Shown: piece after piece, positions 53,081-63,204 of the stretch
Layout: each line of letters starts with the position of its first letter
How positions within the stretch are numbered: position 1 is the first letter of the stretch
Source: a virus
Lineage: Duplodnaviria; Caudoviricetes
Virus record (IMG/VR): IMGVR_UViG_3300036770_005357
Reading direction: 5' to 3' (one strand)
DNA length: 64,000 nt
The notes under the pieces: model-generated
The model's input: the letters and a program-made list of their open reading frames with translations, nothing else
Told to the model about the DNA's origin: nothing
Databases searched by the model: none
Position numbers and translations under genes: made by a program

Positions 53081-53324
53081 TTGTTATTTATTAAGATGTG
53101 TTGACGGCAGTTATTATTGTGGTATAAGCAACGATGTTGAGGCACGTATTTTGGTACATAACAGTGGTAGGGGTAGTAAATATGTTAGAAGCAGGTTACC
53201 GGCGGTATTGGTGTATGTTGAGGAGTGTGGTAGCAAGAGTGAAGCGATGAAGCGGGAGAGACAGATAAAGAGTATGAGTAGGCAGCAGAAGATACAATTG
53301 ATAGATAGTTATAATAGTATATGA
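53073..53324 (+). CDS. Stand-alone small GIY-YIG nuclease (YhbQ/UPF0213-like)
   Basis: CYLLRCVDGSYYCGISNDVEARILVHNSGRGSKYVRSRLP...AMKRERQIK. Confidence 0.92.
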   Translation: MYSCYLLRCVDGSYYCGISNDVEARILVHNSGRGSKYVRSRLPAVLVYVEECGSKSEAMKRERQIKSMSRQQKIQLIDSYNSI

Positions 53325-53887
53325 TTAAATTAAGTGAATTATTGCAATCTCCGTATAGAGATGCTGTATCTATATTTGAATCTCCGTTTCAATTAAACAG
53401 GCCGTATAATCCGCAAAATTTAGAATCTATTGGAAGAAATAAAGTATTTACGGATAATATAATAGAAAAGGCGAAGAAGATTGGTAGATTTGAAGATTAT
53501 CAGTTATATGAATATGTTGTGGGTGATGATATATTCAATATATTGGAGCAGAGTGGATATACCTATGGATTTTTTCAATATAGAGTAATAAATAATATTG
53601 TTAATGAAGTGGGTATATGGCAATCGCCTATTAGTTTGGGGTTAATTAGAAGATTTATATTTGATTATATACTTAAAGTGTATGATGGATTATTATCTGA
53701 TGATGCACATACCGAGTTAGGACAAAAATATTGGGATAAAGTATTAAATCGAGCATTGAGTTTGGGTTATGGTGTATATGTTATTGAAAATGATAAAAAG
53801 ATATCTTTATCATCAAATATTGATATTAGTAAATTTTACAGCAAATCTTCGGTAGGTATGAATTATAAGTTTTTGATACAGAAATGA
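53321..53887 (+). CDS. Leader-tagged GNAT-like protein
   Basis: MIKLSELL; LLSDDAHTELGQKYW resembles the SD..QT..G...W motif of polyvalent-type GNATs. Confidence 0.5.
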   Translation: MIKLSELLQSPYRDAVSIFESPFQLNRPYNPQNLESIGRNKVFTDNIIEKAKKIGRFEDYQLYEYVVGDDIFNILEQSGYTYGFFQYRVINNIVNEVGIWQSPISLGLIRRFIFDYILKVYDGLLSDDAHTELGQKYWDKVLNRALSLGYGVYVIENDKKISLSSNIDISKFYSKSSVGMNYKFLIQK

Positions 53888-53912
53888 TGTAGAGAATATT
53901 TAATTAAGATAT

Positions 53913-54110
53913 ATGAATGATAAATTGGATAATATTGAACCGAAAGAATGTATGACATTTGATGAGGCTTGGGAGCATATGAACAAGTTGGGTATGACTG
54001 TGGTACATTTGAGTGATGATGAGTATAACAAGCTTATGGATGATATTGGCAACTGTGAGAGTATGCGAGAATTTGATGAAATAATGGATAAATTAAGATC
54101 TTCGGATTAA
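53913..54110 (+). CDS. Small acidic protein
   Basis: ORF track. Confidence 0.55.
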   Translation: MNDKLDNIEPKECMTFDEAWEHMNKLGMTVVHLSDDEYNKLMDDIGNCESMREFDEIMDKLRSSD

Positions 54111-54406
54111 CCGCTTCAAAAATGGTGTTTTAACGATAAATGTTCAATGTTTTGTAGCAAAAAGATCTTCAGCAACATCTTCGTTTTGTGTAAAAGACGC
54201 GGGGGGTGCTTGTTAATAAGCCTCCCTATAGTGAGGGTAGATGTGTAAAATATAATATTGATTAGGTGTAAAACATCTGATATATAGAGAGTAGATGAGT
54301 TCCGAAGGAACTATCGTATGTTACACATCAATGTTTGGTAGAGCTTCAGGTGAAGTTGACGCAAATGGTGATTAGTTGTACATAAAAATATATAAAAAGG
54401 AACAAA

Positions 54407-60167: not shown

Positions 60168-60187
60168 TTTTTTATATTTATATTAAC

Positions 60188-61846
60188 ATGATTAGTTTAC
60201 ATACAATTTTAAGTGAAAATGTAGATCAAAATATTGATCGTATAAAAGCCGCTTACAAATTCTTTATACAACATTTAGGATTGCCAGCTGGTAGAATCAA
60301 ATTAAAGCTGGGTCCACTAAGTGTTGATCCAGATTCTGGATTACCAACACAAGCAAGTGTATTTGTAAGCAAAGATAAACCGGCTAAATACATTATAACA
60401 GTTAATAGCAAAAGCGCTGTAAGTGTATCTGATTTGATAAGACATTTAGCACATGAGATGCAACATATACTTCAAACTGAATCTGGTAGATTTGATGTAT
60501 ATACACACACTTGGGATGGAAAGACTTATGAAGTAACTAAAGGCACTGAAGAATATTATAATTTACCGTGGGAAAGAGATGCTCGTAAAGCAGCATTTGA
60601 ATTGGAATTGGCATTTACCAGATATATGCGTGATAAAGGTGCAAGTAAGAGTTATAAGAAATTAAATGAGAATCCGGATACAATTGTTTATAAAGGTCAA
60701 TATTATGTATATAGCACTCCACACAACAAGGCTAGTTTCTTAATTTATAAGGATGATAAAACTAAAAAAGAAACGCTATTTGGTTTTAGTGTTAATAAAA
60801 AAGATTTCTTTAGTTCCGATCCAGATGTTATAAAAGAAATAGAAGAACTTACAAAGGGTACAGATTATTCACAATATTATACACGACAAAAAATTGAAGA
60901 TTTCAAAAGTGCTTCAAATGGCAAGGGTCATTATGATTTAGAAAAATTATTGATGGAACTCAGAAGATATGATAATGGCGGTCTTTCAAGAGGTAGAATA
61001 TTTGAATTACCCGATGATATTACTGTATGTACATTTTGGGAACCAAAAAATGTTGTCTTGAAGTATTTGAAATTTTACGAAGAAGCCATTAAATCAAGTG
61101 GTTATGATCCTAAAAAGATATTATACGAACCATATGATGTTAAGAATTTCATAACATATGAAGAGTTTATTAGTAATACATCTCCTGATCCTACATATGT
61201 AACTTTAAACGACGGTAGCTTAGCTAAGGTTGGTGAAAAGGTTGTTATAATTTATCTTTCACACGATCCGAATGATTTAAATAATCCAGATGGTGAAATT
61301 GTAAAAATAATAAATGGCAATAGAGTTAAAGTAAAAATTCTCAACTCTAGAGCTCCACAATATTTCAAAGTTGGAGATGAAACGGAGGAAGCCGGTAATT
61401 ATCTTCTTCCATATGATCAAAAAACAAGATATCCAGATGCAGGTGGTGAAGATATAAGTTCGGTAATTGATACAAAGACAAAAGAATTTGTAGATAAACG
61501 AGCAAAATTACACACAACAGGTGCAGCACTTACAACCGCTGAAAAAGAAGCACTTGAAGTGGAAGTAGATAGTTTAGAAACAGAAATCAAATTGTTAAGA
61601 GACATAATGGCTTCCGGTGAAAAATATTATACGGATAATGTGAAAGATGTAGTGAGTAAATCTGTTGCGCGTAAATTACATGCTAAGAAAAAAGAAAAAC
61701 AAGATCAATACAGTTTGATTGCACAAGCTGAAAAACAATTTGGTATGCCTATTGCACAAATAAGACAAAAGTATAGAGGTGTACCGTTGGATCAATTGAT
61801 CAAGAAAGAATCGTTATATAGAAAGATAATGAACCAAATTCTATAA
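60188..61846 (+). CDS. Leader-tagged multidomain protein with N-terminal zincin metallopeptidase motif
   Basis: MISLHTILSE; LAHEMQHILQ (HExxH); YYNLPWERDAR. Confidence 0.75.
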   Translation: MISLHTILSENVDQNIDRIKAAYKFFIQHLGLPAGRIKLKLGPLSVDPDSGLPTQASVFVSKDKPAKYIITVNSKSAVSVSDLIRHLAHEMQHILQTESGRFDVYTHTWDGKTYEVTKGTEEYYNLPWERDARKAAFELELAFTRYMRDKGASKSYKKLNENPDTIVYKGQYYVYSTPHNKASFLIYKDDKTKKETLFGFSVNKKDFFSSDPDVIKEIEELTKGTDYSQYYTRQKIEDFKSASNGKGHYDLEKLLMELRRYDNGGLSRGRIFELPDDITVCTFWEPKNVVLKYLKFYEEAIKSSGYDPKKILYEPYDVKNFITYEEFISNTSPDPTYVTLNDGSLAKVGEKVVIIYLSHDPNDLNNPDGEIVKIINGNRVKVKILNSRAPQYFKVGDETEEAGNYLLPYDQKTRYPDAGGEDISSVIDTKTKEFVDKRAKLHTTGAALTTAEKEALEVEVDSLETEIKLLRDIMASGEKYYTDNVKDVVSKSVARKLHAKKKEKQDQYSLIAQAEKQFGMPIAQIRQKYRGVPLDQLIKKESLYRKIMNQIL

Positions 61847-62386
61847 ATGATATTATTAACTATTTTACTTTGCGTATTGTGGTGTAGTATTTGTGAATGG
61901 TTACTACACAAGTATATGATGCACAATGCTTTATTTGGATTTCAATATCCGTATGAAGCACATGCTAAGATACATCATACAACATTTAAGGCTGATGACA
62001 CTTATCAATTGCAGAACGAAGTGGATAAAAAGACTATTGCAATGGCGTGGTGGAATTCATTTGCAATTGCTTTGATGGCGAGTGTACCACTTATAATATT
62101 GGGGTGGAAATATTTCTTTATCAATTATGTTGTAGCGATGTGTTATTATGGTGTATATGAAACATTACATTGGTGTATGCATTTACCTAAAAGAAGAAAG
62201 GTAGAGTATAGTACTTGGTATAGAAAGTTGAACGGTCATCATATATTACATCATCGGTACTTAAAAAAGAACTATAATGTAGTATTACCGTTTGCAGATT
62301 TGATATTTGGAACATTATTGACAAAGAGTCCAATAAAGTTCAATCAAGTAAAACCAAGTTATTGTGTGCCTGATGTACAACCTTAA
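61847..62386 (+). CDS. Fatty-acid hydroxylase/sterol desaturase family protein
   Basis: His boxes HKYMMH, HAKIHH, HWCMH, HHILHH; TM segments. Confidence 0.85.
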   Translation: MILLTILLCVLWCSICEWLLHKYMMHNALFGFQYPYEAHAKIHHTTFKADDTYQLQNEVDKKTIAMAWWNSFAIALMASVPLIILGWKYFFINYVVAMCYYGVYETLHWCMHLPKRRKVEYSTWYRKLNGHHILHHRYLKKNYNVVLPFADLIFGTLLTKSPIKFNQVKPSYCVPDVQP

Positions 62387-62400
62387 TATATTTATAAGAT

Positions 62401-63204
62401 ATGAAGTTAATAGAAATACTCAAGAAACATATATTAAAAGAAGGTATAGATGATCCTTCAATATTAAAGTGTATATTTTTGGCAGGTGGACCTGGCAGCG
62501 GTAAGAGCACTGTAGCTTCTGAATTATTTGATTTACCCAAAGATTTATCTGTAAATAGATTTGGACTTAAAGTGATCAATAGTGATATAGAGTTTGAAAG
62601 AATGTTACATCAAATGGGTATATCTACTGATTTAAGTAAATTAAGTGGAGAAGATTTTAAAAGATTGACAAGCGGAAAAGATTCGGTAAGAGAAAAAGCA
62701 AAGAGAATTGCTAAAAAGAAACTGGAAATGTATAGAAAGAGTAAGTTAGGATTAATCATAGATGGTACAGGTGACAGCATAGAATCTATACAAACGAAGA
62801 AACATATTATGCAACAACATGGTTATGATTGTTATATGATATTTGTTAATACGAGCTTAGAAGTTGCTATGGAAAGAAATAGAAAAAGAGCTCGTAAGAT
62901 ACCCGATGATTTATTGAAACAGATGTGGAATAGTTGTCAAAATAATATTGGCCACTTTCAAAATATATTTGGTAATAATTTTAGAATTGTTGATCGTACA
63001 ACATCTGAACCAATTGACAGAAGTGTCGTAAAGAATACAGTAGAGTTCTTAAAGAGTCCTATAAGAAACCCTATCGGTAAAAAGTGGATACAAAGTTATT
63101 ATGATGATAACAAGAAAGTAAATCAAACTGTATCTGGTGATTTTGAACTTGATGATGCTCCACTATTTGAACCAATACGACCAAGAACATTTAAAGACAA
63201 ATAA
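62401..63204 (+). CDS. Leader-tagged zeta-toxin/AAA_33-like P-loop kinase
   Basis: MKLIEILKKHILKE; LAGGPGSGKS, INSDIEFE, LIIDGTG, VNTSLEVAMERNRKRARKIP. Confidence 0.8.
   Translation: MKLIEILKKHILKEGIDDPSILKCIFLAGGPGSGKSTVASELFDLPKDLSVNRFGLKVINSDIEFERMLHQMGISTDLSKLSGEDFKRLTSGKDSVREKAKRIAKKKLEMYRKSKLGLIIDGTGDSIESIQTKKHIMQQHGYDCYMIFVNTSLEVAMERNRKRARKIPDDLLKQMWNSCQNNIGHFQNIFGNNFRIVDRTTSEPIDRSVVKNTVEFLKSPIRNPIGKKWIQSYYDDNKKVNQTVSGDFELDDAPLFEPIRPRTFKDK

Follow-up and report, generated by a model that had tools for sequence, protein, structure and literature searches.

A 64,000-nucleotide stretch of viral DNA from the IMG/VR database (record IMGVR_UViG_3300036770_005357), hereafter the window, encodes a set of mostly unrelated proteins that begin with similar short N-terminal leaders closing on a glutamate. 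The window is part of a large, AT-rich (~32% G+C) uncultured T4-related myovirus. Besides the leader-bearing genes it contains gp6- and gp25-like baseplate genes, tail-fibre genes, genes for PhoH and Hsp20, and a collection of 15 tRNA genes and one tmRNA gene (tag peptide AEDNVISYDFSYDDVVALAA), all on the minus strand at 18710-30821, 41201-41276 and 47801-47878. Neither a near-identity DNA search with the window nor a protein search of cultured phages with its ADP-ribosyltransferase (ART) recovered a close cultured relative.

Flanking sequence came from freshwater metagenome contigs (Joint Genome Institute (JGI) sample 3300034073), which were matched to the window by exact-protein look-ups. 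One of the assembly contigs with these genes falls in the 0.2-1 Mb size class. Approximately 57 kb to the left were read along a 106-kb JGI contig, with seven such look-ups; over the shared segment (window 1-41544) contig and window agree with zero mismatches. This left flank encodes a tail sheath, the large terminase and Portal_T4, followed by two core-like proteins, Peptidase_S77, a gp22-like scaffold and Gp23 – an order of portal, protease, scaffold and capsid genes that is the same as in T4. A complete IMG/VR genome of 295,831 bp (G001) is syntenic with the window, with core genes that are ~65-80% identical in DNA. Because of the head genes in the flank and this synteny with a complete genome, we conclude that the phage is T4-like and ~300 kb in size.

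The leaders comprise two classes and a number of shorter variants, all of which end in hydrophobic-x-Glu. Class A leaders are 10 residues long (M-I-x-L/F-x-x-L/I-L/I-x-E), and class B leaders are 16 residues long (MTKxELKxLIKE followed by V/C/T, L/I/M, any residue and E). Strict class A leaders head the window genes at 56855, 59217, 59604 and 60188 and two flank genes (L009:2227 and L009:2996), while strict class B leaders head the window genes at 57965, 58274, 58644 and 59023 and, on the minus strand, those at 47465 and 47008. Variants of 8-14 residues that end in L/I-x-E are found in the window (MKLIEILKKHILKE at 62401; MKLRDFKKLILE and MIRLNPLRRTLAE at 24534 and 24775 on the minus strand) and in the flanks (MKLKHLLE at L009:11591; MIKFKDLLE at L073:10934; MKLIDILLE at L073:13077, a Pfam GP88 protein). 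This amounts to 14 or 15 tagged genes in the window and 5 in 59 kb of flanking sequence, or ~20 in 123 kb.

A first-pass annotation of the window, made from the sequence alone, had drawn attention to these N-termini, and every one that it quoted is present. Five of its examples were looser than the others: three of these (62401, 24534 and 24775, the latter two on the minus strand) are the variants just described, the one at 53321 lacks a glutamate at position 10, and the one at 2246 on the minus strand is weak and of doubtful membership. The same annotation described the leaders as basic and amphipathic. The tags are rich in lysine, leucine and glutamate and are predicted to be helical; basicity is not a uniform property, as class A leaders have isoelectric points of 4-6.

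We asked how specific the strict patterns are by scanning 113 kb on both strands for candidate ATGs followed by at least 30 sense codons. Fourteen of the 905 candidates matched, each of them the first ATG of a predicted gene; there were no matches in 68 non-gene open reading frames (ORFs) or at 399 internal methionine positions. Chance origin of the strict N-terminal tags is thus excluded. The patterns were written after seeing the data, with the IMG/VR scan and the homologue families described below serving as independent checks, and an L/I-x-E anywhere within the first 20 residues was too common a pattern to be used as evidence. Away from N-termini, motif cores occur at only two sites in 32,874 residues of predicted proteins: a class A core within the gp22-like scaffold, and residue 216 of the protein encoded at 23335-24534, where it falls on a module junction. 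The T4 scaffold is itself cut at several sites.

Residue conservation within the tags is sharply delimited. In class A, positions 4 (L/F), 7 (L/I), 8 (L/I) and 10 (E) are each kept in 20 of 20 leaders. In a set of 32 non-redundant class B leaders, all have L/I/V/M at residue 14 and 28 have glutamate at residue 16, both positions lying outside the DNA pattern (residues 1-12) by which these leaders were recovered. Conservation ends after residue 16, with none from residue 17 on, and this profile is the one to be expected of a propeptide ending at a cut site. At the invariant residues, 3 to 5 synonymous codons are in use; selection on the tags is therefore acting at the level of the peptide and not the DNA.

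Table 1. Window genes with candidate capsid-targeting leaders (assignments are predictions)
Coordinates	Strand	Assignment	Length (residues)	Leader	Product	Upstream motif
56855..57928	+	cargo	357	class A, MIKFKDILCE	C-terminal PGDYG-like domain	ATATTTATA at 56842-56850
57965..58237	+	cargo	90	class B, MTKSELKALIRETLSE	orphan, no family match	
58274..58627	+	cargo	117	class B, MTKSELKKLIKEVLSE	paralogue of 58644	
58644..59006	+	cargo	120	class B, MTKSELKKLIKEVLSE, as in 58274 but with synonymous DNA differences	paralogue of 58274	
59023..59205	+	cargo	60	class B, MTKQELKKLIKETMSE	orphan	
59217..59525	+	cargo	102	class A, MIRFKKLINE	orphan	
59604..60167	+	cargo	187	class A, MIKLKDLLNE	ART-PolyVal domain after leader	ATATTTATA at 59591-59599
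60188..61846	+	cargo	552	class A, MISLHTILSE	~150-residue HExxH zincin-like domain; 390-residue extension	late-type motif at 60174-60182
62401..63204	+	cargo	267	14 residues, MKLIEILKKHILKE	P-loop kinase (AAA_33 / zeta-toxin-like) after leader	ATATTTATA at 62388-62396
53321..53887	+	probable cargo	188	starts MIKLSELL; no Glu10; first I-x-E at residues 18-20		
47181..47465	-	cargo	94	class B, MTKKELKELIKEVIIE	in early-gene region	own ATATTTATA at 47470-47478
46625..47008	-	cargo	127	class B-like, MTRTQLKMLIKE		ATATTTATA at 47031-47039
23335..24534	-	two-module cargo	399	MKLRDFKKLILE; internal class-B-like copy at residues 216-232		
24554..24775	-	probable cargo	73	13 residues, MIRLNPLRRTLAE; looser match		behind TATTTAT motif
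1788..2246	-	doubtful member	152	starts MKIEALKEYIKK	between baseplate genes	

Homologues bear on several of the less typical entries. The protein encoded at 47181-47465 has a homologue in G001 with the same leader class, and the G001 orthologue of the doubtful 1788-2246 protein starts MKSNELKEIIRSVIKE, which is nearer to class B. For the 24554-24775 protein no homologue was found against which its leader could be compared. The gene at 53321 has no late motif directly upstream, and its longer leader recalls that of T4 IPI, whose 19-residue leader ends in ITE.

Consistent with the leaders being substrates of a prohead protease, the left flank encodes a Peptidase_S77 protein of the T4 gp21 family (L009:10975-11577; Pfam E 2.6e-29, 102.6 bits against a cut-off of 27), and the complete relatives G001 and G002 also encode one. 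The phage protease is 33% identical to T4 gp21 and retains the GELxHP and G-x-S-S-R-G motifs around T4 His85 and Ser140, which we take to be the catalytic residues. Among the products of the neighbouring head genes, the capsid protein has L-D-E followed by alanine at approximately residue 60, in the segment immediately ahead of the part alignable to mature T4 gp23, and the gp22-like scaffold starts MSDLLKE.

In T4, the gp21 cut follows L/I-x-E, and the 10 N-terminal residues of IPIII are enough for packaging; within the capsid-targeting sequence, residues 4 and 7 serve targeting and residues 8 and 10 processing (PMC9026906). The N-termini in the T4 record are MKTYQEFIAE for IPII and IPIII, MKTFKEFTSTTTPVSTITE for IPI and MAKINELLRE for gp24. 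As judged from the aligned leaders, class A conserves exactly positions 4, 7, 8 and 10 of the T4 rule. Class B shares the cut-site part of the rule, with hydrophobic-x-E in 28 of 32 leaders, and departs from it in length (16 versus ~10 residues). A co-fold of the gp22-like scaffold with the tagged 102-residue protein gave a score of 0.00 with both chains poorly folded, and counts neither for nor against binding.

Many of the tagged genes had been reported to follow a TATTTAT motif. The motif is present, but it is better written as ATATTTATA, of which the window holds 17 copies against 4.6 expected, a number reached in 0 of 100 shuffles. Within ATATTTATA lies TATTTATA, which on the opposite strand reads as the T4 late promoter TATAAATA, a sequence visible before T4 genes 22 and 24. 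ATATTTATA lies ahead of tagged genes, or of the opening gene in a tagged array (association of tag and motif, p = 0.002), and also ahead of tail-fibre and other structural genes; on the basis of this position and of the association with structural genes, TATTTATA is a putative late promoter. The late-type motif ends 4-25 nt before the ATG, with no Shine-Dalgarno sequence evident. Window positions 35000-50700 have a different character: G+C is 0.38-0.44, against ~0.32 in the rest of the window, and small minus-strand genes each lie behind TTGAC-N17-TAnACT, with a -10 element that ends ~9 nt before the ATG, so that their transcripts would have almost no 5' leader. The only tagged genes in this early block are those at 47181-47465 and 46625-47008, each with its own ATATTTATA.

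Several of the tagged proteins carry recognizable domains. The protein at 59604 matches Pfam PF18760 (ART-PolyVal) with E 2.8e-13 (51 bits against a cut-off of 31), and its homologues retain MIKLKDLLxE with an invariant Glu10. The C-terminal domain of the protein at 56855 matches Pfam PGDYG at E 1.1e-5, just under the family cut-off. The zincin-like domain of the protein at 60188 has standalone homologues of ~160 residues with the same type of leader (M-I-K/S-L-..-L-L-x-E); a fold model of the protein (predicted local distance difference test score 75) gave best Foldseek matches that are all zincins (SPRTN/Wss1-type, selecase, MATCAP), though these are weak and none reaches E <= 0.001. The flank protein at L009:2996 has a K-x-D-G motif of the nucleotidyl-transferase ligase kind, and language-model comparison likens it to viral clusters with DUF6267 in about one-fifth of their members. 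Sequence searches of solved structures with the zincin-like and ligase-like proteins returned no match.

The protein at 62401 matches Pfam AAA_33 (E 1.7e-14) and Zeta_toxin (E 4e-10), and belongs to a kinase family of at least 7,999 sequence clusters at E <= 1e-5; an IMG/VR search with this protein as query gave no match. Among the best 120 of these at least 7,999 homologues, the stretch before the conserved G-V/I-x-D-P core ranges from 8 to 86 residues and is variable in sequence, yet the residue immediately before the core is glutamate in 118 of 120 and the residue three before it is I/L in 113 of 120. Some homologues have a plain class A leader placed directly on the core, such as MIRLKDLLNE followed by GVYDP.

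The 23335-24534 protein carries a second leader internally. Its residues 216-326 align with the N-terminus of an IMG/VR class B protein, leader included, and the internal copy reads MNETKLKQLIKQLIKEE and sits at the module junction; no promoter motif precedes the internal methionine. From this alignment, the protein looks like two cargo modules joined at a leader/cut site, and the internal copy suggests a two-part polyprotein that would be cut in the head. A leader swap, in which the same cargo would have acquired a different leader, had been considered for this protein and was dropped when pairwise alignment showed the internal copy at residue 216.

We next considered how widely the tags occur. 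A scan of IMG/VR with a degenerate DNA pattern for class B residues 1-12 returned 42 sites in 41 loci. Of these sites, 41 coincide with ORF starts, and ATATTTATA directly precedes most. When the first 20 residues are removed, 77 tagged proteins taken from the window, G001 and IMG/VR group into 38 BLAST clusters, and Pfam domains differ between cargos. The description of the proteins as unrelated goes slightly too far, as the pair at 58274 and 58644 are paralogues. Across related uncultured phages, at least 30 unrelated families of cargo begin with the tags. In G001, which also encodes the protease, 17 genes are strictly tagged, including translationally coupled tagged arrays at 207-217 kb and 268-271 kb. 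A G001 homologue was detectable for only 4 of the 18 tagged proteins of the window and left flank that were tested.

A physical link to virions comes from the cultured T4-related jumbo phage Atu_ph07, which infects Agrobacterium. Its gp53, a protein of 778 residues that starts MKWNDLNE, contains a kinase homologue with 37% identity across 81% of the query. The proteins that follow, gp54 to gp62, start M-R/K-W-x-Q-L-T/N/I-E, while gp63 starts MRLFQLLE and gp43 starts MRLIDLLE. Mass spectrometry of purified Atu_ph07 virions identified gp53 (31 peptides, 45% coverage), gp54 to gp65 and gp43 (PMC6102473, Table S5); the paper is silent on leaders or cleavage. In Atu_ph07, then, a cargo homologue and a series of proteins with similar tags are demonstrably part of the virion, while cleavage is not part of that evidence. 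Most of Atu_ph07 gp53-gp62 (L072, 30441-53943) also contain a YRGM motif, which would fit an array of ART-like paralogues. In the Pelagibacter phage HTVC008M (L070, 104818-107224), the kinase homologue starts MIPFILKE followed by GLYDP, and one gene upstream lies a K-x-D-G-motif protein (MYNDLLVE), so that both have short leaders ending in L-x-E. The Methylophilales phage Melnitz is another cultured relative with such tags.

We consider it likely that the leaders are T4-type capsid-targeting propeptides and that the proteins behind them are packed in the head and delivered with the DNA. The first-pass annotation had reached the same reading, and it is supported by the S77 protease in a T4-type head cluster, by the agreement of class A with the T4 rule and by the kinase homologue in Atu_ph07 virions. 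By analogy with T4, the tagged genes would be transcribed late from the TATTTATA-type promoter, and the short amphipathic tag would dock each protein on the scaffold core of the assembling prohead. The gp21-family serine protease would then cut after the glutamate of the closing hydrophobic-x-Glu, leaving the mature enzyme or small protein in the head with the DNA, to be ejected into the next host cell. There the cargo could act before any phage gene is expressed, by ADP-ribosylation, phosphorylation and proteolysis and, probably, by countering host defences. We infer the docking, cleavage, head retention and ejection steps from the T4 precedent.

Several points weigh against this interpretation. 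Packaging and cleavage are, for this phage, deduced from sequence, and the late promoter is likewise deduced. Class B has no experimentally studied counterpart, and some mature cargos are acidic, unlike the basic internal proteins of T4. Hydrophobic-x-Glu is short and frequent by chance, which leaves the looser members at 24554, 53321 and 1788 uncertain. The I/L-x-E-G junction of the kinases could in principle be part of the fold instead of a cut site. Finally, although 0 of 35 early-promoter genes in the window, flanks and G001 carry a tag, this absence is not significant alone (p = 0.12).

Other explanations for the shared N-termini can be weighed against the same data. The tags might be propeptides for assembly of the prohead core, with no delivered effectors, the tagged proteins acting in the assembling head or being degraded or expelled like the fragments of T4 gp22, gp67 and gp68. 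The class A core within the gp22-like scaffold is compatible with such a role, as is a tagged gene (L009:11591-12046, MKLKHLLE) directly following that of the protease, and for the many cargos that are small orphans without an enzymatic signature an assembly role is conceivable. It fits poorly with an ART, a P-loop kinase and a zincin, which have no obvious role within a capsid; T4 offers in Alt the precedent of an ART that is ejected (PMC5512222; PMC9026906), and the turnover of cargo between close relatives is better suited to host-directed arms-race genes than to assembly parts. We therefore regard a pure assembly function as unlikely.

The tag could also be a handle for another partner – a modifying enzyme, a chaperone, or a membrane or oligomerization surface contacted by an amphipathic helix – and not a capsid address. 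The predicted helicity of the tags would suit a handle, and G001 does encode three radical-SAM proteins, but their genes (6 to 36 kb) are separated by more than 100 kb from the tagged arrays (152 to 291 kb), and no CxxxCxxC radical-SAM-type protein was found in the 113 kb around the tagged genes; a radical-SAM handle was rejected on these grounds. Moreover, the glutamate that closes the tag is invariant after L/I, and conservation drops abruptly behind it; a cut site accounts for this pattern and a docking helix does not, and we hold a handle of any kind to be quite improbable. An RNA-level explanation, in which the similarity is a feature of mRNA or translation start in near-leaderless late transcripts and carries no protein signal, would account for the late motif 4 to 25 nt before the ATG, the lack of an evident Shine-Dalgarno sequence and the A-rich first codons. 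It was rejected on the codon evidence, since selection acts on the peptide, with up to five synonymous codons encoding invariant residues. Other genes behind the same motif have no tag, tags are kept within translationally coupled arrays on genes without a promoter of their own, and an internal copy lies at a module junction. We give this explanation almost no credence, and retain capsid targeting as the preferred one.

A number of untagged genes lie among or near the tagged genes. A membrane fatty-acid-hydroxylase-family gene (61847-62386) is within the cargo run, between the zincin-like and kinase genes, and a 90-residue GIY-YIG nuclease gene (53052-53324) overlaps the start of the tagged gene at 53321 by 4 nt; GIY-YIG/NUMOD3 genes also occur beside the terminase and capsid genes in the left flank. 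Two paralogues of ~140-150 residues (52649-53080 and 56383-56838; 24% identical, E 5e-9) without a family match are interspersed among the cargo genes, the latter behind an early-type promoter, and the N-terminus encoded at L001:11041-11457 resembles theirs on unaligned inspection. In the left flank, the tail sheath (L006:18383-22432) is unusually long, at 1349 residues versus 659 in T4, and an operon of a PAS histidine kinase and a receiver-only response regulator (L009:17867-19892) adjoins the capsid gene behind a late-type motif.

A broader proposal is that a very large aquatic T4-like clade uses both tags as a portable address code. Any gene that gained 10 to 16 codons would then become injected cargo, internal copies would be polyprotein cut sites in the head, and the kinase would be among the most widespread injected effectors. 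We put the chances of this broader scheme a little below even. If capsid targeting is correct, the set of injected proteins of a T4-like phage could be read from sequence alone, yielding ~20 candidate injected proteins, enzymes among them, in a lineage without a cultured member. The T4 capsid-targeting principle would extend from a few small basic proteins to a large, fast-turning arsenal of enzymes, and would be linked to the domain set of polyvalent delivered effectors. The class B leader type, a huge kinase family with a protease-type junction and a candidate polyprotein junction all become testable, and the tags could serve as packaging handles in phages other than T4.

The tag mechanism has been described in T4, and its presence in T4 relatives was explicitly anticipated (PMC9026906). 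The closest comparison is with T4 IPI, IPII and IPIII and the Alt propeptide: both systems have a protease of the same family and an N-terminal leader of ~10 residues with hydrophobic residues at 4 and 7, L/I at 8 and glutamate at 10, in both the tag is common to otherwise unrelated proteins, and one cargo here is an ART, as is Alt. The phage differs in having ~20 tagged genes in 123 kb versus a handful in T4, a second, 16-residue leader class without a T4 counterpart, and cargo that includes a kinase, a zincin, a ligase-like protein and a GP88-family protein and is not all basic. T-even internal proteins share only the capsid-targeting sequence (PMC3012670), and the variable T-even internal-protein loci, which encode anti-restriction proteins, likewise place fast-changing cargo behind a constant tag, much as here, where 4 of 18 cargos recur in G001 despite core genes with 70-75% DNA identity; in this phage the host lineage and leader sequences are different, and the arrays are larger and partly translationally coupled. 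Atu_ph07, which has a gp21 homologue, is similar in its run of genes with 8-residue leaders ending in L-x-E (gp53-gp63), while its leader differs (M-R/K-W-x-Q-L-x-E) and its kinase is embedded in a 778-residue multidomain protein.

Two further groups invite comparison. Polyvalent proteins, which occur in phages and conjugative elements, are predicted effectors that are packaged and delivered with the DNA (Iyer et al. 2017, PMC5512222), and the proteins described here share with them both domains (ART-PolyVal, zeta-toxin-like kinase, zincin peptidase, PGDYG) and predicted role. Polyvalent proteins are defined by two to fifteen effector domains per polypeptide, whereas the ART, kinase and zincin are encoded here by separate genes of 187, 267 and 552 residues; each domain has its own small tagged gene, and only 23335-24534 is a two-module chain with an internal tag. 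In the phiKZ-like giant phages, whose ejection and inner-body proteins form the second group, many head-internal proteins are processed after glutamate by a distant gp21 homologue (the phiKZ gp175 and SPN3US gp245 proteases; PMC9026906), but their propeptides are long and varied and have another cut motif, in contrast to the short, uniform, T4-type leaders of this phage. The predicted system is thus an unusually large example of the known T4 mechanism, in which the second leader class and the internal junction copy are the new details.

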